A stretch of DNA of 59,732 nt, filler included, from Platydemus manokwari (Eukaryota): NCBI GenBank assembly GCA_037951405.1. It is 5 parts of 5 records of this genome, joined end to end, with 100 filler letters (N's around TTAATTAATTAA, not from the genome) between each part and the next. Parts side by side here need not be neighbours in the genome. Positions count along the whole stretch, not along the records: positions 1 to 9,712 come from JBBMOY011214433.1; 4 more parts are not named here. One strand, written 5' to 3'. Position numbers and translations under genes: made by a program. Shown in pieces: positions 1,152 to 55,538 of the stretch. How positions within the stretch are numbered: the first letter of the stretch is position 1; each line of letters begins with the position of its first letter. A model generated the notes under the pieces. That model had not been told where the DNA came from and ran no database searches. It was given only the letters and a program-made list of their open reading frames with translations.

Positions 1152-1321
1152 GTTTTTACATGAGTTTGTGTGTTTTAATTGGTTATGTACATTTTTTCCA
1201 ACTGTAATTCACCATCTAACTTCACTGTGATTGCTTTATTGATATGTCGGTATGGTTCCAAAACAAAGGTTCCCAGGCGTAATTTCATTTTTCTTTTTGC
1301 TGAATTTTATCTTACTCAACA
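1152..1321 (-). repeat. LTR-like copy homologous to the 5' LTR at 7951-8207
   Basis: Colinear shared blocks: gtttttacatga, cttcactgt, gtatggt, ccaaaaca, tttttctttttgc, actcaaca. Two indels; roughly three-quarters identity by eye. Left boundary unclear. Confidence 0.7.
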
Positions 1322-1879
1322 ATATCAAACATCAAATATTATTGTTAATAAATTTCTATTATTTGCTTGTCACACATGATCTCTAACCTTAATTACTAGG
1401 TCCATTTGTTGGTCATAGATATGGCATTACAAATCACTCGCTTTCGTCCACTCATATTTGAAGATTATACCGCCAAAACAAATAAAAATCTAAGAAAAAG
1501 CAAGAAAATAAAAAAGCAAAAACGCAAAATTTATTGAATTTGTAAATGCGTGTAACACAATTTTAAACAATGAACAAAGTTCTTCTACCAAAGAGTCAAC
1601 TAATAACAATGAAATAACTTTAGCTGATAATACAAGTGATATTATTAAACTTGTTAAATTTATTTAACATTCTCCAGAAAATAAAAATATAATTTCATAT
1701 ATTTCAGAATCAAGTGCTAATATTTTAAAATATATTAATGAGGAGGAAGGTGTGAACTTTCGAATAGTAATTGAAATTATATTGGAAAATCTTAATGATT
1801 TTCGAAAAGAATATATTATTACAAAATAAATATATTCAAATAAAATATTAAGTTGACAGGAATGAAATTATTGCAAACG

Positions 1880-2095
1880 AGTTATTAAATATTGTATTCG
1901 TCTTGACAGTTCCTTGTATGTTTCTCTCGAATTCTATGGTATTTTTATTCAAAATGATTACCCGCTGGTTCGGTGTTATTTTAGCGTCCAATAAGACCTC
2001 CTCGTCATAATTGATCGCTGCAACAATTAATGGGGATCTGAAGCCGTTTGACTTCCTAACTGTGAATATCATATCGAGGAATATTAATATTTTTA
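1880..2095 (-). pseudogene. DEDDh (REX4/ISG20-like) 3'-5' exonuclease remnant, N-terminal half
   Basis: ILIFLDMIFTVRKSNGFRSPLIVAAINYDEEVLLDAKITPNQRV, then after a frameshift YHRIREKHTRNCQDE. Resembles the REX4-type pattern ALDCEMVG..G..S.LARVSIVNY.G.VL.D..VKP...V.DY.T..SGI...HL. Confidence 0.5.
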
Positions 2096-2399
2096 TTTCG
2101 TTTTGACTTAGCTTCGTTTCAAAAATTATTTTCAGTGTTTCATGTTTTCTATTGTTGGATTGTACTTCATATTCGGTATGCTTTGAAGTGGTTCCCTTTC
2201 CATTGGATTGAATCCTTTAGCTAGTTTTTCACTAGATTCCATGGCTATCTATGATAGTAAGCTGATTGCTCATATTCGGATGTTCCAATCTTCTGATTGA
2301 ATTTCTCACGAAGTTCTTCGTTCCATTTCGAATACACTTCCATTATGGTCGATGAATTCTGCGCTTTTTGAAAATATTTGGATTTTCTTTTTTTCCTTT

Positions 2400-2907
2400 T
2401 TGAAATTCCTACGAAACTCTGTAAGTTCTTACATTTATCTTCCTCCTGTATTGTAAATTTCCAATATCTTTTGTTTAAGTCAATAGTTGAAAATATTTGC
2501 GAATTCCCTATTTTATCATAAATAGTCTGTGGGAGGGGTAATGGATATGTGTCTTTTCTAGTGACAGCTTTTAATTTTCGATAATCCACACACCATCTGA
2601 TACTACTATATTTTTTCTTAACCAATACAACTGGAAATCCCCATGCAGAAAAACTGGGTCTTATAATGTTATGTTCAAGCATTTGTTGTTTTTGTCTTCT
2701 ACTTTCTTCCAAGTGTGCGTACGTTACACGGTACGGTCTCATTCTTATGGGTATCTCCTTACCTGGTAATAATGATATTTCATGTTCAACCACGTGAGTG
2801 CTATCTACGTTAAATTCATGTTTGGCTATGTTATCACCATATCGTTTAATTAATAATTTTAATTTTAACTTTTGATTTTCATTTATAACTTCACTATCAA
2901 TTTTCAT
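2400..2907 (-). pseudogene. pol: Ty3/gypsy reverse transcriptase, internally deleted
   Basis: PIRMRPYRV, IIRPSFSAWGFPVVLVKKK, RWCVDYRKL, DTYPLP, FSTIDL. The sequence jumps from EEDKCK directly to NLQSFVG, so the YxDD palm is missing. No RNase H or integrase seen. Confidence 0.9.
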
Positions 2908-3720
2908 ATCATCATAATTTTTTGTTGGTACTTTTTTAATAGTTGTGTCAATATCAGATGTGTATTAGGATTAAGCGTCACCATTCTATTTGCAAAGTTG
3001 GCTAACCTAATTGGAATCTTTTGATTCTCCATCAGTACTAATTCATAACAAACTGGCGTTTCGTATTTTTGTATAAATTGTTGGTTTGGTTCGAATAATA
3101 AACATTCTTTTTCTGTTTCCGTGGATCTAGCATAGTATACGACCTCTGAACGTGGTGGTATAATTAACGCACTGTCTAAATATAGTTCATTAGATTTATG
3201 CTTTAATTTGCCAGATGAGGCTTCGACAAGATTTCCTGTTCGGAAATCTAATGCTATGTTTCCTAGTCGTTCTAGCATATCCATTTCTAACACACATTTA
3301 AATGGGAAATTGTCCATTACTACCACAATGTGTTTTATTATTTTCCCCATCATTCCAATATTTGTAATAGTTCTCCCTACCATTTGTGGTGCTGACCCTG
3401 GTATTGTTTTTAAACTCTCTTCTCCCCAAACTATATTTTCTTCTTCCTTTTGAGTTAGAAAGTCTCTTGATACAATAGTGATTTTTGATCCTGCGTCAAC
3501 TTCCCTGTTATTTAACTTAATCCGTGTGGAGGGTGTTTGGCCTTTGCGTCCGAGTGTAATATATACATGTGAGCTAGGTATCCCTAGTTGATTTCTTCTC
3601 TCTACGTCCCAATTTATTCTTTTTATTTCTGGGGTTTCCTTTAAGATTGGTTTCATCTCTTTTAATTCAGTTAAAGGGTAAAATGGTAGTGGTGGTTTGA
3701 ATGTTGATGGTATGAACAAT
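2904..3720 (-). pseudogene. Retropepsin aspartic protease plus post-protease beta domain
   Basis: REVDAGSKITIVS (D[T/S]G-like site), CVLEMDML (ILGMD-like), and IIPPRSE...IPIRLANF..VTLNPNT, typical of the metazoan gypsy PR-RT linker. Confidence 0.8.
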
Positions 3721-3949
3721 TCATTAAAACGTGATTCATTTTCTTTTTCTAAACGCTCTAATTTTAATAAGGTTCCCGAATCTTCCTAATTTGGTACCGA
3801 TATGTCTGAGTGTGTGATAATATTGTTATCGTCCCTTGAGTTAGAATAATTATTTTCATCGTTTGGAGAGTGTCTTCTGAAATCGAAGATGTACTAAATC
3901 TTACTTTCCTTTTATTTTTCATTTCAGATTTTATATTATTCATTTCTTC

Positions 3950-5469
3950 ATATTGATGATTGATAATGAAAAATTTAGCCAAAAATGGAATACATCCTAG
4001 GATTAATTTCCATGAACAATGTCATATAGACGATGTTATATAGACGATAAGTAGATAATATTTGTGCTAATAAAACTTGTACAAATGTAAAATAAACATA
4101 CGCTCCTATCAATCCGGCACAGGCTTGCCCAAAGAATATGAATTTTCCCCAAATTTTTCCCATTGTGTTTAGAGTTGCTTTTTTGTAGTGATCTGAGCCT
4201 AGCAAGTATTCGTAATTAGCTTGACGACTTCCTTTTGGTAAAATAGTATCAACGAATTCTGTTATTACGCGTTCTCTCTTTGAAGGAAATAGTAAGTTGC
4301 GTCTGTTTTCCTCTAAGCCCTCTGGTGAATACATTCCCGTAGCTGCTAAATTATTTAAAGATGTAAAATTTATTAGGAAGTTTAATTTAATTAGTTGAAA
4401 TGAAAAGTATAATCTAATTTATTACTAAAATATTGTGCCAACTTAATATCGGCATTATGGACTTTTTCCTTGGCACTTTCTAATTTTGTTTTTGATACAT
4501 ATAATCCTTTATAATTGGTCTGATACAGTAATTTTCCACATTTTGTCACTGTGTCTTTTCTGATAAAGCGCATTCCATCTTCATTCAAGGTTGACATTAA
4601 AACAGTTGCGGTTTGCTTCGTTCTTACTGGGATGGCCTTTATCTTGCCCTTGGGTATTCGATCGGAAGGTAAGTTGTTAATAACTTCATTTACTCGTTCA
4701 CCCTTAACTTCTATTAAATTAGTTTTTTTTTAAAATGCCAAATTGCAGTCTTGTGACCTTACATTATATACTAGTACTGACTCGTCGGTTTGGCAACTTT
4801 TGTGTCTTGAGTTACAGAATGGATGAGTTTGCATTTACCCATTCAGTTCATCAAATACACCTTCCCATTGTCGTATTTCGACGGAATATTCCTCCATCAT
4901 TACAGATTTATCAACAATTTGTCCAGAAAATTCAAATGGTTCTCCTTTACATTCTCCATCTGTTTCTACGGATCCTCTAACTACAATGGATTACCTCATG
5001 ATATAACCTCTTTTTGCTGAAAATTTAATTTCAGTGTCTATTTTTAATTTTCTAGTTTTAAAAGCTGTCTCGCAGTTGTTGGCGTCTATCTGTAATGGTC
5101 TGGGGATCGCTTTCATCATCATCAACGATGTATGACTTCATTTACCACAGTGAAAACAAAAGTTGTCTTCTTAACGACGCATTCTTTTACTTGCATTCTA
5201 ATAAAATTTGATTCCTTATATAGAAAATAATGCTTATTTTCGTCATTAGAGATTTTCATCGGATATGCTTTCGGGCATTCCGTAATATCCATTAACGAAT
5301 AAATTTTTCCCATTTCCGTTTTAGAACAATCGTATGCTATTAAGGTTTTAACTTCATTACCGATGCTAAATAGCATTATCATCATCATAAAAATTATGTC
5401 TTTGCTCCAAAAGTTTAAAGATAACATTCCACTTCTTAATATCTTACTTTTCTTATTTTTTGATTTCAT
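3950..5469 (-). pseudogene. env: Chuvirus-like (Jingchuvirales-type) envelope glycoprotein, decayed
   Basis: Hydrophobic signal, then LIAYDC..YSLMDITEC, HCGK*SHTS, GSVETDGECKG, KCGKLLYQT, YFSNKLDY, LAATGMYS..LLFP, IWGKFIFFGQACAGLIG plus TM, SWKLILG. Order and spacing match chuviral-type G as recalled. Confidence 0.8.
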
Positions 5470-6799
5470 TAAATATATTCGATTTTTATTATTGATTGAT
5501 TAAATTTCACTAAATTCCGTATTTTCCTTTTTAATGACAATATCTGTATGATTATTATTATGATTATTAGTATTAAAATCTTGATGAAATGTTAAGTTAA
5601 ATGCTGCCTCTTAAATGTCGTACGTAACGTCATTTTTATGCAAATTGACTCGTTCATATTCTACGTTCTCATTAATAATACCTTGCTAGCAATGAACTTC
5701 GACGTTAATTTCATTTGCTTTTCCATCAACACATCCATAATTCAATAAATATTCATCGTCATCTAAATTTTGACCGCAATATGTTAAGATAATAACCGCT
5801 TCGTATCTCAACTTCTCTGAAATTCTTCTTCTGATTCTCTTTACCTTTGTACACCAATGCTCTTTGAAATTCTCCATTTCAACTCCTGATTTTAGCAAAC
5901 TGATTTCAAACGGAGGTAAATTTAAGCCTTCCTTTTTCCATATTTTTCCACATAACGTAAAAATACTTCTGAAAGTAGAATTAATAGGTAAACATTGTTC
6001 TATATACGGATAAACAAATATATTAATTCACTCAAATTACGAAACATTGATATATTTTCCTTAATAATTTCCAAAATTTTCATTATTTCGCCAAAATTCA
6101 ATGGCTCCTCCTTTAAAAGCGTACTCACCTGTTTTAGCATTCCTGTAGAGTTATTCCATTTTTCTATACATCTTTTTTCGATTTTCACAACAATATCATT
6201 TTCTGGCACGATGCTATAAATCATCACATAATCATCATCATGTAGAATTTGATTGAAAAACGTAAGCGGAGCATCTCCTCCAACAATCTGGCTTCTAATA
6301 TCTTGAACTCTCGAAAAGAATTTAGTTTTACTTTAATCAAATCACTTACCAAATTTTCAACAAAAAACTCAAAATCTTTTCCTTTATAAGTAACTGCTAT
6401 TAAATCTAACATTTCCGCCATTACCTTCATAAATCCTGAATTAATTGCCCTACTCCTCAAAAGCTGCGACGACATAACCGAACATAATTCATTTTCGTTT
6501 CTGCCTAAATTAGAAAGTTTACGTCTGTCCGTCACCGTATTCCAAACTATTCTCGAAATTTCCTCAAAATGCATCATACAAGTCTCTAATTTTATTTTCC
6601 AACTCCTCAATGTTTTAATACTCTCATCATCATCAATGTTCTCACCACTACTATCATAATCTTCATTTCTCCATCTCAACAACGTATTTGGTTTAATCAT
6701 TAAATTAAGCCCTTCTTCACCTCCTAGCATCTCGATCCATCGCTCCAGTTTATTTTTCATCATCGATATTTCTGATTCCCATGGATTTTGTGATTCCGA

Positions 6800-7916
6800 T
6801 TGTGTTAAATTAACTTTGGATTGATCGTCTTGAAAACTTACTTTCTTTATGGGAGACGACTTCTGAAATCTACTTGTGTTTCGTGGACATGATCTGGCAA
6901 AATGCCCGAAGTTACCGCAGGAGAAGCATTTAATATGACCCTGGGTGTTAACAATGTCTCTTTGCGGTGATTTTGTGAAGATTCCCGTTTTACAGTCGTT
7001 CGAAATATGACCGATTTTACCGCATGTGAAGCATGACCTATTGTCTCGAATCGGTGAATCTTTCCGTTTAAGAATTGGAGAAGTGAAACTACTTCGAGAT
7101 TTTGTTAGATTCTCACTGACAAATTTAAATTTGCATTGATTGGCATAATGCCCAATTCGGTTGCATTTAAAGCATATCACCCTTAGCTGCTTCTTTGGAG
7201 AATCGCTGACCGACAATTGACGTGATTTTGTGAATAATCGCGTGGATTTTGAATGGATATTGTAGATGGATTTTTTGGGTGATGACCTTTCAATTTTACC
7301 CATCAAGGAGAGATCTGTTTCTGTGGCATATGTGACAGGCTGGCGAATTATCGATGTAGATTTCATTTCTACCCTCATAGCTTTTTTTATGAGTTCATCG
7401 TAGGTGTTATAATCCACGAGACTGAGCGCTGTGCTGATGTGTTGGTGCACCCCTTTCAAAAATTGATCCTCAACCACTTTTCGCGTTTCTGCCGGCCACT
7501 CCGCTTTCGGCCCGAATGCTTTTTCCGCAAGTGTTGATAAATGGTACGCAAAATGGCCTACGATTTCGCCGGTTTTCTGCGACCTGGAGTAAAATTTTTG
7601 ACGAATGATGCGGCCCAATATCTCCGCTGATTAACTTCTCTGATAAGGCGTCTTTCATTGCTGTCCATTGGGCAATGTTTCGTCTGTCGATTTGATTGTA
7701 GGTTTCTCTTGCTGCGCCTTTCAAATAAAGAGGAAGTCTTTGGATCATCGTCCTTTCAGTCCAACCATATGTCGATGCATACATAAAATAGTCCGTCATA
7801 AAATCCACAAAGTCAACAGAAAGCTTTTGACAACTAGCACAATCAGTTTGTGGAACTAGTCGTACCTGGTGTTGAATTGACTGTTGGCCTGAAGAATATT
7901 GGTTCTCTGAATACAT
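6800..7916 (-). pseudogene. gag: Gag: capsid plus three CCHC zinc knuckles, one frameshift near 7618
   Basis: GWTERTMIQRLPLYLKGAARETY, SRSQKTGEIVGHFAYHLSTLAEKAF, DQFLKGV; knuckles CFKCNRIGHYANQC, CFTCGKIGHISNDC, CFSCGNFGHFARSC. Confidence 0.92.
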
Positions 7917-7934
7917 TATCGTAAAAGTGTTCGA

Positions 7935-7948
7935 ATGAGGGCTCACCA
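7935..7948 (-). promoter_or_regulatory. Primer-binding site candidate (TGGTGAGCCCTCAT)
   Basis: TGG-initiated, lying directly between the LTR end and gag. Priming tRNA not identified. Confidence 0.6.
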
Positions 7949-7950
7949 AA

Positions 7951-8207
7951 TAATAGTTGGGGTATTAACAAATATTAAACTCTGACTGTATTTAGGTTTT
8001 TACATGAATTGGATTGGTCAATCCCTAGATGTGTGTTCTGTGTAGTTATGCCCTTTTTCCGATTGTACTTTGCTAGCTAGCTTCACTGTAATTGGCCGAT
8101 TGGCGTGCCTGTATGGTCGTGCAGGCATGCAAATGCTCAAAATGCCAAAACAGGGTTCCAAGGTGCAATTTCGTTTTTCTTTTTGCAGAATTTCATCTCA
8201 CTCAACA
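7951..8207 (-). repeat. 5' LTR, about 257 bp
   Basis: Begins TGTTGAG on the minus strand, abuts the PBS and is homologous to 1152-1321. Inner end lacks a perfect CA. Confidence 0.7.
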
Positions 8208-8600
8208 ATATGTATATGCCACAGACATATAAGAAGTTCCCGAATTCGAATAGGGACTTGGATCAACAATTCAGCTTTATCCTTTTCGTCATTCTGAATA
8301 AGGTATTTGTGTGTATTTACAAAATGACCTCCATAAGAAAATAAAAAATTAGCAAATAGTGACAATTTTTATTAAAATAAGACTAAGAATTTAAAACTAT
8401 TTGTACATTCCGCGTCTATGGAGAAAAAGTTTGACATATAAAATAATTGGAGGCCGAAATATCCTTGTAGAAATTAATGAGGCCTATTTTGGACATGCCA
8501 AATATAATAGCGGACGTTGAAGACATGGTATTTGAGTGTTGAATGACTAGAGAAAGAATTTCTTCTTATTTCTAGTCTACACCGAAGCATAGCGACTCTA
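8208..8600 (+). mobile_element. Merlin (IS1595/ISXO2-like) transposase remnant
   Basis: RIRIGTWINNSALS and IIGGRNILVEINEAYFGHAKYNSGR...HRSIATL resemble the Merlin motifs SIRxGTWF..S.LS and KIGG.G.IVEIDESKFGKRKYNRGR...DRS..TL. Contains stops. Confidence 0.75.
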
Positions 8601-9712: not shown

Positions 9713-9812
9713 NNNNNNNNNNNNNNNNNNNNNNNNNNNNNNNNNNNNNNNNNNNNTTAATTAATTAANNNNNNNNNNNNNNNNNNNNNNNNNNNNNNNN
9801 NNNNNNNNNNNN
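9713..9812. other. Artificial contig spacer
   Basis: 44 N + TTAATTAATTAA (stops in all six frames) + 44 N. Confidence 0.98.
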
Positions 9813-20515: not shown

Positions 20516-20615
20516 NNNNNNNNNNNNNNNNNNNNNNNNNNNNNNNNNNNNNNNNNNNNTTAATTAATTAANNNNNNNNNNNNNNNNNNNNNNNNNNNNN
20601 NNNNNNNNNNNNNNN
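20516..20615. other. Artificial contig spacer
   Basis: 44 N + TTAATTAATTAA + 44 N. Confidence 0.98.
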
Positions 20616-24242: not shown

Positions 24243-24689
24243 TTTATTGCTTTAGGATATAATGTAGACGTTGACTGCTCGCCAACTGAGGTGAAGACTT
24301 CTTTACGTCCTGACTTAATAATCTGAACTTCGGATTGTAAAAATATGAAAAAACTTACATTTCTCGTAGATCTTAAGGTTCCACCTGATAAGGAAGAAAA
24401 CTTTAGGAATAACTTGGAGAGAAACTACCGAAAGTATGAAGACCTGGCAGTTCAAATAGCGAGGCAATCCAGAACTTCATTGAGTGTGCATGTGTTAAAC
24501 GTAGGTTGTTTAGGATCATGGGATCCACAGAATGATGGGGTCCTGAGGCGAATAGGGTTAGATAATAAGAGTTCAAATGAGTTAGCTTCAATTCTTGTTT
24601 CTAATTCTATTATAGAATCATATAGGTTATATAGATCTCACATAGCGAAGGAGGCTAGGCTTCCAATAAATAGCCCACCAATAATCTAA
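24243..24689 (+). mobile_element. 5'-truncated non-LTR retrotransposon, restriction-like endonuclease domain (NeSL/Utopia-like)
   Basis: LRPDLII*...LVDLKVP...RKYEDL...VGCLGSWDPQND.VL..IG...S..LY..H is the PD-(D/E)xK RLE signature with GSWDP. Confidence 0.8.
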
Positions 24690-30847: not shown

Positions 30848-30947
30848 NNNNNNNNNNNNNNNNNNNNNNNNNNNNNNNNNNNNNNNNNNNNTTAATTAAT
30901 TAANNNNNNNNNNNNNNNNNNNNNNNNNNNNNNNNNNNNNNNNNNNN
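30848..30947. other. Artificial contig spacer
   Basis: 44 N + TTAATTAATTAA + 44 N. Confidence 0.98.
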
Positions 30948-31727
30948 TCACATTTGAACGATTGACGAAAGAAGATTTGGGATCATACAAATGTATTGCT
31001 AAAGGTACCACTGAAAATAATATGGAAATGGAATTAGAAGCTACCACCTATCAAAGAATTTCAGGATATGAATACAATAGAATTGGTAATAATTATATTC
31101 ACGATAATTTAATTATAATTATATATATTTGTAGAAGGAAACAATGACATTAGCAACAAAGTCAATATTGAAAGAAATATCGAAAGATCATCTGTCGAAT
31201 ATTCCATTAACATTGTATCATCACCCGAACAATTCAGAATTGGAGAAAGATTTACAATGCAATGTAAAGTTACTCCACAAATGAAAGATGTTAGATACCA
31301 ATGGTTCAAGAATAGCAATTTTTATTCAAACGAAGAAACTGTCACATTTGAACAATTAACGAAAGAGGATTTAGGATCATACAAATGTATTGCTAAAGGT
31401 ACCACTGAAAATAATATGGAAATGGAATTAGAAGCCACCACTTTTCAAAGAATATCTGGTTTGTGCTCTTCCGTTAATCGAAAGATAAAGAATAGAGAAC
31501 TACATTGCTCATCTGCCAACCGTGAGTTTTCTGGATCTGATGTAAAATGGTATTATAATGATAATGAATTGGATTCACTGAATTCTTACAAGAAACTTGG
31601 TGTTGAAAGAAAAGATATTAATTATGGCAGTATTTTGCTTTTGAAAAATATTTCGTTATGCAATGAAAAATTTATTCGTTGCAAGGTTGACAATATCATT
31701 CAAAACGTTAAAGTTGTTGAGTTCTGA
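30948..31727 (+). CDS. 3' end of a tandem immunoglobulin-domain protein (intron 31086-31134)
   Basis: Ig motifs MQCKV, YQWFKN, DLGSYKC. A near-identical coding repeat recurs at a 394-bp period (30948 vs 31342). Terminal divergent Ig (LHC..VKWYYN..IRCKV); no TM. Confidence 0.85.
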
Positions 31728-31938: not shown

Positions 31939-34218
31939 CTATGTCATGTTCTTGGGCAGTCCAACTTTACCAAACGTTGCACGTAAAATTTCAATCATTG
32001 AATTTTCACCTTCGATTAATTTTTCCGCTTTTTCTACTGGTGTATTAATCGGCCCATGTCGGCGTTCCCATACCATGCGATGTTTCTGTTTAGCGTAAAC
32101 ATCTCTCACATGATTGTAGTATCCAATATCACCATCTATTCCATATCAAAAAAAAAACAATAATCAATATTATTTGTTGTTTTATCTAGTTAATATATTT
32201 TGTTGGAATATGTGATATTATCTATATTTAATTGATAATTTTTAATATTCTTGATAAACTCATGATTTGTTTCTGACATTAGTTATAAATTAAATATTTC
32301 TCAAATAATATGAACTACATCAATTGATTTCTATTTATATTGTGTACATCAGTGATTCCCAAAGTGGGCGCTACAAAGATCCAGAAGGTCGGCTGTTGAA
32401 TACAAGCTCAATGGGGGGAGGTGACAATACTGTAAGAAAATTATTATTAAAAATTTTGATTTATCTCGTTTGCTCAAAACGCTTAATTTGTCTTTAAACA
32501 ACGAACTGTGCGTTCTCACTAATTTTCATTGAAGTATGTGTAATCGCGCACTCAATGCTGCTGGTTGTGCGCTTTGTCGCTTGCAACGCCGAAGTCTGGT
32601 AGTAGAGCGGTAGTATTTCTGGGATTCCCCGTAATGATTAACTGAAATAAAACTAAAAGAAAGATTAGTTTGTTGTGATGTTAGGAGAAGTTAAAATTAA
32701 GTAATAATAGATATTAACACTAAGATTTTTTTATAAATTGCTACTAAAAGTTTTAAAAAAATTGGTGTGTTAGTTTGAGGGCGCTATGTAATATTTATTC
32801 TGAAAAGGGGGGATACACCAGAAAAGTTTGGGAATCACTGATGTACATTTATCATATATCACATATCTCAATGATGTGATTAATGCCTTCAAAAATATAA
32901 TTGAAACATGTACATGCTTAAATGGCGTAATCAACGTTTGGATGCCAAATAACAATTCCCGATCATGGGATATCACAGAAAAATGAATTATTATCAGTAA
33001 ATGCAATTATAATTATATTATTATCAATAATTATAATGATAATTATTATCAATTATAACATCATATCAATGAATATTTAAGTGATTTAGTGTTGAAAATC
33101 TTGCGTAAGGTGTTACGCAACTATGCTGTTTTCGATAATAAATCACAAAAAAGCAAATACCCCGTTTTAGAAACTTTTATAAATGGAAAAATACATCATG
33201 TTTTTTATATAATATAAGATTCTACAAGGTCTTTCGTAATCGAACCACATCATTTGTTCAGGATCCCTTATTTCAAACAATCGATAATTTGATCTCGACA
33301 CAATTAATTTGGGCTCAGTTTTATTTGTTTGATTTTTTAACAAGATTTTTATCAGACGAAACCACTAATAATATCATATTTTCGAACAATTTCCTTGTCA
33401 TTATTAAATAATATCATCACCATTCATTGATTAATAACGATAAAAAACTGTATTATAAAACCATATAAATAAAATTTTCATTCAAAAACAAACATTATTA
33501 TTCAATTATAATCTTCTCAATTAATAATTTTGATGGAGATGGAATTATTATTGAAATTAATTCGTAAACAATCATTAAAATATTTTAAAAATCAATATTT
33601 TAAAATTAATCAATTATTACACAATGTTATGTTATTAGATCATCATAAGTCCTTACACTTAATGAAATAGTTCTGTATTGCTTGATCATAATCTTCTCTT
33701 TCTTTAGTACATAGCGATTCTCTTTCGTCCGCTGATCTATCTCCACTGTACCACATAATGCATTCGGTTTTTCGTTTTCTTAGAATTCGAACAATCTGTG
33801 ATTCGACTAACCTAATTTAGTAATTTCAAGACTTGATTAATCATTCTATTTGACAATACCGATCACGTTGATATTGAGCATCAGCTTCTTTTTGGCAAAT
33901 AACATCGTCTAGATAACATTCATCAATTTGCGGAACTCGTTTGTATATTCGATGATAATAAGGATATGGTTCGCCTCGAAATTGCATTAGAAAATCTTGA
34001 AAATAATTAAAATTGCTTTGCTCTTTATTAATAAATTAATGCGAACTATGAAACATTGTGGTTGATTCGTCCACAGCGTTTGCTAGAGCAGTGAAAAGAG
34101 AATTTTCGTATCGCTCTGTCTTTTTATCTAAATATTCGCGCTTGAAATGACTTTCATGATGATGAGAACCATGATCAGATTTATGGTTTTCATCGCCGTC
34201 ACAATCTTCACTAGGCAT
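31939..34218 (-). CDS. NDUFB10: NADH dehydrogenase 1 beta subcomplex subunit 10 (4 exons)
   Basis: Spliced translation gives PYYHRIYKRVPQIDECYLDDVICQKEADAQYQRDR, VESQIVRILRKRKTEC, and last exon (31939-32135) YGDIGYY...KQKHRMVWERRHGP. Intron 3 spans 32136-33656. Confidence 0.92.
32350..32840. mobile_element. Non-autonomous hAT (Buster/Charlie-type) MITE, 491 bp, in NDUFB10 intron 3
   Basis: Perfect 14-bp TIRs CAGTGATTCCCAAA. 8-bp TSD gtgTAcat/atgTAcat with central TA. Confidence 0.9.
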
Positions 34219-45765: not shown

Positions 45766-45865
45766 NNNNNNNNNNNNNNNNNNNNNNNNNNNNNNNNNNN
45801 NNNNNNNNNTTAATTAATTAANNNNNNNNNNNNNNNNNNNNNNNNNNNNNNNNNNNNNNNNNNNN
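45766..45865. other. Artificial contig spacer
   Basis: 44 N + TTAATTAATTAA + 44 N. Confidence 0.98.
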
Positions 45866-47598
45866 TATTTTGACTTTGTCAGGTGAATTTGGATTGAAAT
45901 ATTTGACAATTGAATGACCTGCTTCATGGTATGCTGTTAAAACATTGTCTTTTTCTTGCATTGGACGATTTCTGGCCGAGCCCAATGAAAGTTTGGTCTG
46001 AGATTCCCACAAATGACTCATGGAAACGGCTGGATGATCATTCAATACACAAATAATAGCGGCTTGATTGACCATATTTTTGATATCAGCACCAGTATAA
46101 CCAATTGTTGATTTAGCCAAATTCTGAACATCGATATTTCCATTGGTTAATATTTTTGACAAATAAAGATTGAACAGAGCGATTCTGCCTCGAAAATCTG
46201 GTGGATAAACTTGAATTTTCAGATCGAATCTACCAGGTCGAAGAACAGCTTTGTCAAGCGCTTCTACTCGATTAGTGGCACCGATAACAATAATTCCATC
46301 ATTCTCAACAAATCCATCCATTTCAGACAACAATTGGTTTATCGATTGATTTGCATATGGATGACCCGGTGATGATGTTCGGTGACTACAAACCGCATCC
46401 AATTCATCAATAAACACAACACACGGACTATGTTCCTTGGCTTCATTGAAAAGCGCTCGAATTCGAGATGCACCAACACCGACAAACAATTCTTCAAACT
46501 GACTACCTGAAATATACAGAAATGGCACTCCGGCTTCACCAGCGACAGCTCGAGCCAGTAACGTTTTACCAATGCCAGGTTCACCACACAATAAAACCCC
46601 TTTGGGTAATTTTGCCCCAATGTCAGTAAATGCAGTGGGATTCTTCAAAAATCGTACAACGTCTTGAAGATCTTTCTTTACTTCATCGCACTAGAAAAGA
46701 AATAACCTAACAATAATTATGAAATAATAATCAATACTCCTTGGACATCATCAAATTTAACATCGACTTTGTTAACCAATGTTGCTCCACTTTCATTAGA
46801 TGATCTCGGTAAATATTTAGATATATAGGCTAAATAATGTAAACAATCCATTTTCAAAAGACTTAAAAGTGATTGTAAAAATAATGGAAATTTTAAAAAA
46901 TGTTTAATAAATGATAAAAATTCACTATTCAATTAAATTATTAAAAAAAATAATAATTTCTTTACCATTATTTACCGACGATTTCTTCAAATCCAAAAAA
47001 ATTGAAAATAAAAAGTATGCACCAAACAAGGCAAATATAACGGTGAATATTGTTTTGGATTTCTTTTTCGGATTCGATAAGACATTAATATATCTTTCAC
47101 AACCTAGCTGGTAAGCTTCACGAAGATAGTTTTGAAAATCAGGTCTTGTGCTAAATTTCTTCAATAAAGCTTCCCATTGATCTGCCGTTTTAGATTCTGT
47201 AATCCTATTTTGAGGATATTTTGCTTCGTCACTAATAGGACTATTTGAATGTCTTGTATGAAAATTTCTCTTGATCATAATATTAATGCTTCTTTGAAAA
47301 TTTTTAGAATTGAAATTTGTATGCCATTTGTTTGACATTAATTGCTCTTCCAAAATTGCTACAGATTTCGTTGATAAATTTAATTGTTTAATAAATGAAC
47401 TAAAATGGCATATTTCCTAACAGAAACGAAATTAATCGTTTAAAAACATAAATAAAACCTCATTCTGTTTTTCTGAAGGAAAATATTTATAAATTGTTTT
47501 AACATGAGATAGAATATAATTAAAAGATAAAGAATGTGGTGACTAAATACAAATTAAAAAAATTATAAATGAAATAATATTACCAAACTACAAAGCAT
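45866..47598 (-). CDS. YME1L1: Mitochondrial i-AAA protease YME1L1 (FtsH family), 3'-truncated by the contig end
   Basis: Walker A GEPGIGKT, Walker B VFIDE, SRH LRPGRFD, HEAGH zinc motif, a single TM and [11 protein letters not shown]. The start at 47598 is inferred through two short introns. Confidence 0.9.
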
Positions 47599-47670
47599 TT
47601 TTTATTTAATTATTCAATATTTATTATTGACATAAGTGCAGTTAAACAAGATAAATCAAAATTTATTTCA

Positions 47671-49835
47671 CTACATAGTTTCTATTATATTTAAACATGC
47701 AATATCTTCTCGAATTAGAGTCATCATTTCTTTGATTGATTTTTGTCTTTCACCGAAATACTCAAGAAACAATTATTAATTATCACATTTAATTATTATT
47801 ACTTCTTTCAACTCCTCCATGGCTTCGTTACTTAAATTATTATATGACAATCTCGAGTTCACTTTTGAATTATTTGGAATAACCTTAGGGGTATTTAAAA
47901 TTTCTTGTAAGCGACTCTTAATGCCGAATGGGCCAACAATTTGATTATACAACTTATCCAATGAACACTTCAATGTTTCTTCTTCTGCAGACAGAGTAAA
48001 TCCTTGTTTACTCAAAATTTCTTGAGAACAAAGAATCTACATTTAATTTAACAAAATATTTCCATTTTCTAAATTACTTTTAAAATTCGATTACTAAGGT
48101 CGATTTCTTTTCTTTTGAGTTGGTCGATTTTACCAGACATAGATATAACTTTCGTTTTCATTTCAGATACCATTTCAGCTTCATTCTAGAAAAAATTCAA
48201 AATTAAAAACCATTTAAATTATTAGCATATTAAATATTCTCTTGTTTCAATATTACCAAGTGCATATTCGAAAATCACGTTAAAATGAATATCAAATTTA
48301 TAATATGATCTGATTTTATTTAAATGCAAATTAAAATTACTTAGATGAGTTCCATTTAATTGCGAATTCTGAATTTACATACGAAAAACACTTTGTTTAT
48401 TAAAACTTTTACCACAACAAGATTAAAGAATTTTTTTAATTTAACGAAACAATATAAATTAAACTTTACTCTAATCGTAGCCAATTGAGCCTGTGCAAAT
48501 TCGATTTGTCCCTTAATTCTAGCTTTCAGTTCCACCATTCCTATGGTTGGAACTGGAACCAGGCCTGTAGAACCACTACACTGCTGCTTGGCCTTTTCCC
48601 ACATTTCAATGTCAAGCCCACGAGGAGCTGGTCCATTTAAATAATCATTTATTTCTTTAGCATTTGGTGATATTTGTGCGATTACATCGACAACAGATAA
48701 TTCAGACTCTAATTTAGATTTGAATGGCTCGTTTTTAAATTGGGTGGCAATGGTCGATGCTGGCACCAATCGAGTAATACCTACACATATAATAAATATG
48801 CTATCAATGTACGCTCTATATTTAATATCTTCTTTCATTTTACATTTTAACGAATATTTGTCAAATCAATTACCATTTACTGTTTCATTAACTTTAATAA
48901 AAACATCCGTATATTCCAAATTGGCTACAACTGTTGTTGGTTGAACAACAGGAGCAGTTTGTTGTGAAAATCCAAATGATGCTTTAGGTTGTACGGGTGG
49001 TAAATGATCATTAAATGATTTGATAGCTGGTCGAATATCCTCAATGACAATTGTATGTATTTGACTATTCAATAATTGATGAAGTTTTTCGTGGATTTGA
49101 ATTTTATGTGAAAGAACTTCTTTGAATGGACTTTTAATTAATAATGAAACAAAACCATCTGAATCTTCACAATTTGGAATTTGATTAAATGATATGGCTT
49201 TAAAGCGACACAAGAAATTTTCAGGAGTGTAGACTGATTTCCCATTTAATAATAATCCAATTCCAGAACCCCACATGGCTTGTAACTGATTCCATCTTGA
49301 TATTATGACATCTCTGTCATCTCCACATATTGATGGTTGCGAGATTGATGTTATAAATAAATCATATTCACTTTGACCAGCTAATAAAGATAGAAATAAT
49401 TATTGTGTATACTAAGATTAAACCTGGAATTTGAGTAGTTTGAACATTTGAATTAAAAATTCCAGGTGTTGCGATGGAGCCAAATGGCGTTGTTGATGTA
49501 TTGGTATTAAACCCCAGTGTACTGGGTTGACTTGATGCAACACCAAACCCTGTCTTATTCGCTGTTCCGAAAGAAAATCCGGTTGATGTTGCAGTTGATG
49601 AAGAACCAAATACTAAAACTAATTAAAAAGCTTCACCTATTCGAAAATAAAAACTTGTGGAATTTGAAGTCCCAAATCCGAATGCACTTTGAATAGGTGC
49701 AGCAGTCGAACCGAATGCGGTATTGGTTTGGGGGAACAACGTAGAAGGCTGTGTTGTAGAAGTATTTCCAAATGATCCGAAGGTAGGTGTAGATGTTTTA
49801 GATCCAAATAAATTTGAATTAGTTGTATTATTCAT
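47671..49835 (-). CDS. NUP54: Nucleoporin Nup54 (multi-exon)
   Basis: FG-rich N-terminal exons; GDDRDVIISRWNQLQAMWGSG, ENFLCRFKA, PRGLDIEMWEKAK, LVPVPTIGMVELKAR; C-terminal coiled coil ending IREDIACLNIIETM*. Confidence 0.92.
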
Positions 49836-50159
49836 TATAATTAATATAAAATTAAATTTAACAATTAAAAAAATGATTTTTGTTTAATTAAAACAAACCT
49901 AAAAGTAAAGGTACAATAAAGAATAATTTTCTAAAATTCACAAGCTTTATAAAATAAAGTGAATGTTTATTGTATTGATCTACATTCCCTTAGTTTTAAT
50001 AAGATTTTTAATGAATATGGCAAAAATGACTAAGTTACTATTTAAACGGGTTTTTCTATCGTTATAAGGCATACTGGTATGGATGTTATGTTGAAAACTT
50101 ATGTTCAATAGTAAGAAGGTTTGAGGATAATAATTTTTAACACATGTTAATATCGTTGT

Positions 50160-54569: not shown

Positions 54570-55538
54570 ATGTCTAGAGTGAATCCATCTGTTGTGAATT
54601 GCTCTGTTAATTGCACAAATCATTATGTTGTTGACATTGTTTATTTGTGTGTCTTAATTGTTTCAGGTATAATTTCCAATGCAATTGTTCCACTAGCAAT
54701 ATTGATTGATAAAAGATTGAGAACCGCAAGTAATTTTCTCATTCTTAATATCATCATGGTAGATCTGATCATGTGCTTCTATATCATACCTGTTATACTT
54801 GCTAACAGAATTTTATCAGAAAACATTATGAATCCAATGGGATGTGAAATAAATTCATTCATTACATTCCTTGGTATGGGAACAAACAATTTTTTATTTA
54901 CCATAATTTCAACTGATCGATATCTTTTTATATTGAAGCGATCAATCCATACTAAATATTTTACCAAACGAAGAACAGTTGCTTTACTGATTCTTTTCTG
55001 GGGTTTTTGGATTTTATATGGTATTGCATTGCGATTCATTCGAGGTTTCAATTATAATCCTATGGCATACATTTGCTTCCTAACAGATGATTACAGCAAC
55101 ACTGTTGCACTATCAGTTCTCATTATCTTCAATTTCATCGTACCCATTCTAGTAAGCTCCTGCTTCTATCTGATGCTATTAATCAAATTATTCAAAATAA
55201 AAAATCAAATGTCAAAAAATACTCAAAATGATTTTCAGAAGTCATCGAAATGGAATCTTAACAATCAAGAAATTAAGATGCTTTTTCTTCTAATTGGAAA
55301 TGTTGTAGCTTTGTTTGTTTGTTTGGCTCCATATACGTTCCACTGTTTTTTTGAGGCCTATCAAATATACAATGCTCCATTTATCCAGAAAATTATCCAC
55401 TGGGCAACTTTAACCAATTTTACTTTGAATGGATGGTTGTTTGGTTTGTTCAATTCTCGATTTCGCAATGCAGTTAAGTCTATGGTTAGACCAACAAATC
55501 GAATAAACATTTCTTCAAACAAACCGATTCGATTTTAA
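54570..55538 (+). CDS. Intronless class A (rhodopsin-like) GPCR, orphan or melatonin-receptor-like
   Basis: 322 aa with seven hydrophobic segments, TM1 SN, TM2 D, TM3 C and DRY, TM6 CLAPY, TM7 NGWLF, helix 8 NSRFR. Confidence 0.9.
   Translation: MSRVNPSVVNCSVNCTNHYVVDIVYLCVLIVSGIISNAIVPLAILIDKRLRTASNFLILNIIMVDLIMCFYIIPVILANRILSENIMNPMGCEINSFITFLGMGTNNFLFTIISTDRYLFILKRSIHTKYFTKRRTVALLILFWGFWILYGIALRFIRGFNYNPMAYICFLTDDYSNTVALSVLIIFNFIVPILVSSCFYLMLLIKLFKIKNQMSKNTQNDFQKSSKWNLNNQEIKMLFLLIGNVVALFVCLAPYTFHCFFEAYQIYNAPFIQKIIHWATLTNFTLNGWLFGLFNSRFRNAVKSMVRPTNRINISSNKPIRF

Follow-up and report, generated by a model that had tools for sequence, protein, structure and literature searches.

The locus raises the question of how an envelope (env) gene resembling the fusogens of chuviruses came to lie in what looked like a non-insect genome, what carries it and whether it can still work. 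We analysed the window, by which we mean the whole stretch of 59,732 nucleotides including its filler, and found that it very probably holds a dead copy of a Ty3/gypsy element of compact, Burro-like GAG-ENV-POL layout with a gB-type env, probably in a flatworm. This reading rests on the order of the domains, on the family and fold to which env and a ubiquitin-like domain belong, on a gypsy-type reverse transcriptase (RT), and on LTR cores and disabling lesions; the copy is a real, ordinary fossil of a known kind.

Identity and fold of the envelope

The original prediction named seven colinear motifs and a transmembrane (TM) segment. We recovered all seven motifs (7/7), in order on the minus strand and spread over three frames:

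5337, minus strand: AYDC
5152, minus strand: HCGxxSHTS (one x is a stop)
4957, minus strand: GxCxG
4540, minus strand: CGxxLYQT
4432, minus strand: YxxNKxxY
4349, minus strand: LAxxGxYS
4151, minus strand: WxxFxxFGxxxAG

A shuffle control returned no motif in 963 of 1000 shuffles and a maximum of two in any shuffle; since the motifs were derived from the same sequence, this control is circular and proves little. The independent test of env identity is the Pfam profile search, in which three env pieces match PF24664 (Monjiviricetes fusion glycoprotein) in order, scoring 37.2, 46.4 and 66.5 bits and thus all exceeding the curated cut-off of 27 bits:

5122..5499, minus strand: env N-terminal piece, PF24664 positions 4-83, E 1.1e-9
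4394..5158, minus strand: env middle piece, ending at the deletion junction, PF24664 positions 84-318, E 2e-12
3940..4418, minus strand: env C-terminal piece with membrane-proximal region, TM anchor and cytosolic tail, PF24664 positions 465-583, E 1.6e-18

The N-terminal piece contains a hydrophobic, internal signal-like stretch at ~5400-5345 (hydropathy 1.59 at 5397), followed by AYDC. The predicted TM segment is present as a hydrophobic anchor at ~4124-4053, and the cytosolic tail lies beyond a frame break near 4020. The assignment to the family of chuvirus-type fusogens therefore holds, whereas the exclusivity of that label does not: glycoproteins of xinmo-, qin- and further negative-strand viruses reach almost the same scores, so that "chuvirus-type" is a fair description of env, not an exclusive one, and too narrow.

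We assessed the fold on P0129, an intact relative that is 31-45% identical to the window env by piece, and not on the broken copy. P0129 was folded from an 8-sequence alignment, giving a mediocre model (mean pLDDT 62.6, pTM 0.38). In a Foldseek comparison with the PDB, all matches listed were herpesvirus gB, with HSV-1 gB best (E 3.8e-14); TM-scores were low, at 0.25-0.30 for postfusion chains, and comparison with gB in VIA gave Z 10.0 over 374 residues at an rmsd of 9.7 Å. Against predicted viral structures the best match was Tacheng tick virus 4 G (E 6.8e-40, 22% identity), with chu-like, qin-related and xinmovirus glycoproteins closely behind. Identity in these structural alignments was 10-22% to viral G and 9-14% to gB. 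The sequence profile of the relatives had herpes gB as its sole PDB match, and a weak one (best E 0.004). The structural match to chuvirus G and to herpes gB/class III fusogens on which the original prediction depended was thus obtained, on P0129, and the modelling indicates that the env family has the gB-like class III fusogen fold. The glycoproteins of Jingchuvirales and their relatives (PF24664) and herpesvirus gB resemble the window env in profile match and, as modelled through P0129, in the class III fold; they differ from it in that the window env gene is part of a retroelement.

Lesions of the envelope gene

A central block of env had been described as deleted near 4385. The deletion is real: in comparison with eight intact relatives whose alignments flank the junction, 134-139 residues are missing, slightly upstream of that point (for three more intact relatives the alignment begins at 4373, so they were left out of the size estimate):

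4388..4406, minus strand: junction of the internal env deletion, from alignment to eight intact relatives

On the model of P0129, the lost part corresponds to residues 458-596, which form the latter half of the long central helix and then a beta region; 4 of the 14 ectodomain cysteines fall within it. By analogy, the gB counterparts of this stretch are the trimer core and the crown. Env further contains four internal stops (5140, 4993, 4837 and 4732), and its frame is broken near 5160, 4400 and 4020. Owing to the four stops and three frame breaks the window env cannot work, and together with the deletion they leave it short of a complete ectodomain with central helix and crown. This copy of the element is unable to fuse or transpose by itself.

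The distribution of the lesions also bears on whether the host has co-opted env, in truncated and secreted form, as a decoy to block infection, a role that the available text of PMC7642597 proposes for solo glycoproteins in mosquitoes. We regard this as extremely improbable here, because the first frame break falls ~60 residues past the signal stretch and is followed by four stops and the large deletion, and because decay has gone as far in env as elsewhere in the element.

Structure of the host element

Env sits within a decayed Ty3/gypsy element that extends on the minus strand from ~8211 to 1167 in the order LTR, gag (three CCHC knuckles), ubiquitin-like domain (Ubl), env, protease (PR), RT and LTR. 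Several frame changes separate the parts:

8030..8211, minus strand: 5' LTR, recognisable core, direct repeat of 1167-1325, ending in ...CACACA at 8030
7473..7964, minus strand: gag, capsid part, tblastn matches to the N-termini of P0124 and P0130 and a weak Retrotrans_gag match (E 0.072)
6887..7630, minus strand: gag, nucleocapsid part, Pfam zf-CCHC (E 3.4e-16, 3 stretches)
6003..6800, minus strand: interval from gag to the ubiquitin-like domain, split between two frames, no convincing Pfam family
5689..5916, minus strand: ubiquitin-like (beta-grasp) domain within ORF 5689-6027, in the same frame as the env N-terminus
2955..3566, minus strand: degenerate aspartic protease and conserved spacer preceding RT, 28% over 195 aa to P0137 (pairwise E 4e-16)
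2425..2919, minus strand: Ty3/gypsy RT, N-terminal half, Ty3 RT E 3.4e-23, 37-47% to relatives
1167..1325, minus strand: 3' LTR, recognisable core, direct repeat of 8030-8211

The LTR cores stand in direct orientation, both end in CA and are 78% identical (122/156 aligned bases), which makes the insertion an old one. Extension of the LTRs beyond these cores found no support, as 147/200 and 12/200 shuffles scored as well. No canonical TGG primer site was found after the 5' LTR, and the single 4-bp candidate for a target-site duplication, AGTT after 8615, is possibly due to chance. The window holds no second copy of the element.

The three zinc knuckles of gag lie at 7174, 7033 and 6928. Between gag and the Ubl, neither a Bcl-2-like profile nor the N-terminal portion of the pre-Ubl profile of the relatives matched the region 6003..6800. 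Directly after the nucleocapsid region we noticed an RVxF-like motif (6847-6833, minus strand), which also occurs in the first 500 residues of 5/7 gag-bearing relatives (P0121 at 302, P0127 at 22, P0130 at 402, P0136 at 300 and P0145 at 340). RVxF is the PP1-docking pattern, which is short and common by chance.

The protease segment has no Pfam or PDB match by itself, and also matches the PR regions of P0123 and P0127. A dUTPase-like nature of the PR-RT spacer was considered and dropped, the likeness not being demonstrable by Pfam and PDB comparison. PR followed by RT is retained in the window, and four relatives show the full order PR-RT-RH-IN. No match to RNase H (RH) or integrase (IN) was obtained between 2425 and 1150; these two domains and the remainder of RT are deleted. 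A 122-codon open frame (1848-2216, minus strand) lies between the RT break and the 3' LTR and has no counterpart in Pfam or in the relatives' tails.

That env is carried by a gypsy element, as originally proposed, is supported by the RT, which matches Ty3 RT best among solved structures (E 3.4e-23, against 1.7e-6 for the second-best family). The same result weighs on a reading of the locus as an Anakin-type BEL/Pao element. Anakin elements of mosquitoes, which captured chuvirus G, are the best-known carriers of this env family according to the available text of PMC7642597 and likewise hold a chuvirus-like glycoprotein inside an LTR element; they differ from the window element in their BEL/Pao backbone and insect host. 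With Ty3 RT as the best solved relative (no BEL/Pao RT was scored alongside) and a host that is not an insect, we find this reading scarcely credible.

Relatives and origin of the envelope

A search with the env middle piece in a library of 1.84 billion representatives yielded 82 matches at E<=0.001. Among 25 matches that were scanned, 23 carry PF24664 and 10 have PR and/or RT after env in the same chain; wherever all domains are present, their order is env-PR-RT-RH-IN. From gag through Ubl, env and PR to RT, these relatives align to the window in one and the same order, and P0127 has the layout of the window (zinc knuckle, Ubl, env, pol). A word-index search with the env middle piece gave 0 matches among 658 candidates, and a search with the alignment of 8 relatives gave only 2 matches, no named viral G among them.

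The nearest env sequences are retroelement env-pol polyproteins at 30-39% identity, several of them with a Ubl or Bcl-2-like domain. In the env tree the window lies within clades of 11 and 12 rows (supports 96/93 and 96/89) made of such retroelements. This tree kept the 31 of 84 rows with an env region of >=300 aa, its rows are unnamed, and since it is unrooted and has several long branches we did not use it for the direction of transfer. Because its nearest sequences are other retroelement envs, the window env was inherited inside a retroelement lineage.

These comparisons also address a recent endogenisation, in which the G of a chuvirus or related virus would have landed by chance inside an ordinary gypsy element. 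Chuvirus G is indeed the best structural match among viral proteins, and in arthropods such glycoprotein EVEs are commonly seen next to gypsy fragments (PMC10084718, available text). Against this, the closest sequences are the retroelement env-pol proteins at 30-39%, while the intact relative reaches only 10-22% with viral G; the gag-Ubl-env-PR-RT context is common to the relatives; and the ORFs scanned contain no remnant of an N or L gene. A recent endogenisation is largely refuted by these results and is very improbable.

Two to four tandem aspartic-protease domains follow env in P0121, P0123, P0125, P0126, P0140 and P0169; the window has one. By eye, P0123, P0127 and P0148 have long tails after integrase that start with a second signal-like hydrophobic stretch, and those of P0123 and P0127 end with a TM-like stretch, which suggests a putative second membrane protein downstream of pol. 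P0152 is a predicted protein that joins mitochondrial ribosomal protein L47 (MRP-L47) to an env fragment 44-46% identical to that of the window; its chimeric look is probably that of a gene model running into a related insertion.

Ubiquitin-like and Bcl-2-like domains

We located the Ubl of the window with a profile of four relatives from which the window was excluded (iE 1.4e-9, 1337 targets). Its model has a pLDDT of 72.9, and nearly all of the best 50 of 48,161 VIA chains are ubiquitin-like domains or proteins (Z 6.4-7.7, all <8), the leading rows having an rmsd of 2.2-2.8 Å over 72-76 residues. The Ubl sequence profile ranks ISG15 and UHRF1-Ubl first (E 0.003-0.01). Pfam alone made no call on the window Ubl, and its Atlas scores are 0.85-0.88, under 0.9. 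Since the canonical C-terminal diglycine of ubiquitin occurs in none of the five aligned Ubl copies within the aligned span, a role as a conjugated tag seems unlikely; in P0136, a GG lies a few residues past that span. Only ~95 codons separate the Ubl from the env signal stretch, and this linker contains three stops in the shared frame and four in one other frame.

Directly before env, five relatives (four seeds and P0203) carry a Bcl-2-like stretch. It is supported by a Pfam match of P0129 below the cut-off (E 2.6e-5) and by a profile match to Bcl-xL (E 1.4e-4) in which BH1/BH2 are aligned; for P0136, the stretch has no Atlas support (best 0.77, unnamed) and Pfam made no call in the whole protein. 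The profile that finds this domain in the five relatives gave no credible match in the window. Nor did Pfam detect BIR, MATH, ankyrin or Smc domains in the window element.

Ubl and/or Bcl-2-like domains occur in 8/12 rows of the env clade of the window and in 0/19 outside rows, a comparison in which the other four clade rows start too close to env and only ~4 outside rows have enough upstream sequence. A broader reading would place the window in an undescribed clade of compact "mini-Burro" elements, whose single membrane-threaded polyprotein would comprise Gag, Ubl, class III Env and Pol, with a Bcl-2-like anti-apoptotic domain as an optional part; the clade would represent the ground plan of the planarian giants and reach beyond triclads into a parasitic (neodermatan) flatworm. 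We consider this proposal, taken as a whole, unlikely.

Comparison with known elements

The original prediction treated such envelopes as mainly described from arthropods and the find as unusual. This is out of date. According to the available text of PMC13524379, gypsy elements with the GAG-ENV-POL order from Nematoda, Bryozoa and Platyhelminthes carry a gB-type env related to the G of Chuviridae; the association is argued to be ancient, and 9 flatworm elements are listed from Macrostomum, Prostheceraeus and Schmidtea. We use "errantivirus" in the operational sense of that source. The window element shares with these "ancient errantiviruses" a Ty3/gypsy pol, a gB-type env and the GAG-ENV-POL order, gag included. 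The published elements are intact and often multicopy, and the inclusion rule in the available text asks for uninterrupted ORFs with full RT and integrase; the window copy is decayed and has none of these. It is a relic of the GAG-ENV-POL gB-type errantivirus kind and not an intact member.

Nor is the arrangement unusual. According to the available text of PMC6431247, planarian Burro is already known as a Gag-Ubl-BCL2-Env-Pol polyprotein, in which a Gag with three knuckles, an Ubi2/SUMO-like and a BCL2 domain and an in-frame env between gag and pol precede pol, and its env has matches to glycoproteins of mononegaviruses (negative-strand viruses). Compared by this published description and not by sequence, the window element shares with Burro/GYPSM1 the three-knuckle Gag, the Ubl, the env between gag and pol, PR, RT and, probably, a flatworm host. 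The BCL2-like domain directly before the env of Burro recurs in close relatives of the window and is absent from the window itself. Burro/GYPSM1 exceeds 30 kb and carries BIR, MATH, ankyrin and Smc cargo, whereas the window element measures ~7 kb from LTR to LTR, or by our own estimate roughly 10 kb with the lost pol restored, and is without this cargo. By analogy, the element would have worked like a Burro-type enveloped gypsy element; by size and cargo it is not a Burro. Troyka, in turn, was rejected as a counterpart for its lack of env and its CG...CG ends (PMC12440569, available text).

As it stands, the window adds one more decayed copy to a published class and changes little. What may be new is only the compact Burro-like layout, the clade of small cargo-sharing relatives and, possibly, a new host group. 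Among the top-listed results of a literature search that did not reach most subscription papers or Repbase, no publication treated compact env elements bearing Ubl/Bcl-2 other than Burro, nor any such element in monogeneans. The layout links two literatures, as far as their available texts go: the survey of gB-type GAG-ENV-POL elements, which is without Ubl/Bcl-2 cargo ("ubiquitin", "Bcl" and "polyprotein" have 0 occurrences in the main text of PMC13524379), and the description of Burro, in which cargo is a feature of planarian giants. If small cargo-bearing elements are widespread, retrovirus-like "accessory genes" that act on apoptosis and ubiquitin pathways could be studied in a 10-kb rather than a 30-kb element.

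Proposed expression of the once-active element

The once-active element would have made one long polyprotein. We infer a single chain because the Ubl and the env N-terminus share a frame, because many relatives are predicted single chains and because Burro is so described; this reading rests partly on predicted proteins, some of which may be spliced or chimeric models, as P0152 illustrates. In such a polyprotein, (i) Gag and the ubiquitin-like module would be kept in the cytosol, (ii) the internal signal peptide would thread Env into the ER, and (iii) the TM anchor would stop transfer, which would return protease, RT, RNase H and integrase to the cytosol. By hydropathy, the hydrophobic stretches before AYDC and after the ectodomain are compatible with the roles of internal signal peptide and stop-transfer anchor, respectively. 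Signal peptidase and the protease of the element would then release the parts. Env, as a trimeric class III fusogen, may have equipped enveloped particles that pass between cells and reach germline or stem cells, and the Ubl would most likely have served as a fixed interaction or turnover module rather than as a conjugated tag.

An env placed before pol is reportedly also found in a metavirus of nematodes, among the non-canonical ERVs of Sacco et al. 2022 (J Gen Virol), where gag-env-pro-pol is said to form one continuous frame. The placement of env is that of the window element; the nematode hosts are not.

Host placement

A non-insect host had been predicted, and YME1L agrees with this by grouping with tapeworms. 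Among eukaryotes, the YME1L exon of the window scores best against tapeworms (62%), and in a tree of 26 rows the window groups with them at support 100/96 on a very long end branch (1.44), for a single gene and a set without triclad, monogenean or trematode sequences. Long-branch attraction could produce such a grouping if the element were as described and the host another fast-evolving animal: the end branch is long, apart from the cestodes no other sampled animal is long-branched, and the test used a single gene. Raw identity, however, is also highest to cestodes (62%, against a median of 57.8 and a maximum of 59.7 for 47 other named animals), and 12 columns are common to the window and both cestode genera and to at most one other of 50 named rows. 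With the support of 100/96, these observations make attraction from another animal group improbable, and from the YME1L sequence the host is probably a flatworm. The G+C content of the window (~26%) and its short introns are not decisive for the host, and an exact-sequence query with the GPCR of the window returned no match.

Within flatworms, the available text of PMC13524379 reports ENV-POL env matches in 5/5 free-living assemblies and in 3/50 neodermatan assemblies (one each), with no intact element annotated from any of the 50 neodermatan assemblies. The prior given by this screen therefore favours a free-living host; a parasitic host, if true, would extend the known range.

Other features of the window

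NUP54 and YME1L lie head to tail at 45870-49840 (minus strand), a few hundred bases apart, and contain several introns of ~30-50 bases. Four 100-base gaps (9713-9812, 20516-20615, 30848-30947 and 45766-45865), each composed of 44 N, a 12-base all-frame stop linker and 44 N, are artefacts, and one such 100-base artefact gap interrupts YME1L. An Ig-domain gene (30948-31727, plus strand) adjoins a gap and contains a 118-nt internal duplication at 92% identity. NDUFB10 exons are found at 31942-32145, 33646-33816 and 33844-34035 (minus strand), and two pieces, separated by 1.5 kb, overlap in the profile positions that they match (near 102-104). A 120-codon frame at 24327-24689 (plus strand) has no Pfam match; by eye it resembles what we take to be the C-terminal endonuclease region of R2-like non-LTR elements. 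At 54570-55538 (plus strand) the window carries an intronless rhodopsin-family GPCR of 322 aa (Pfam 7tm_1, E 1.3e-28).
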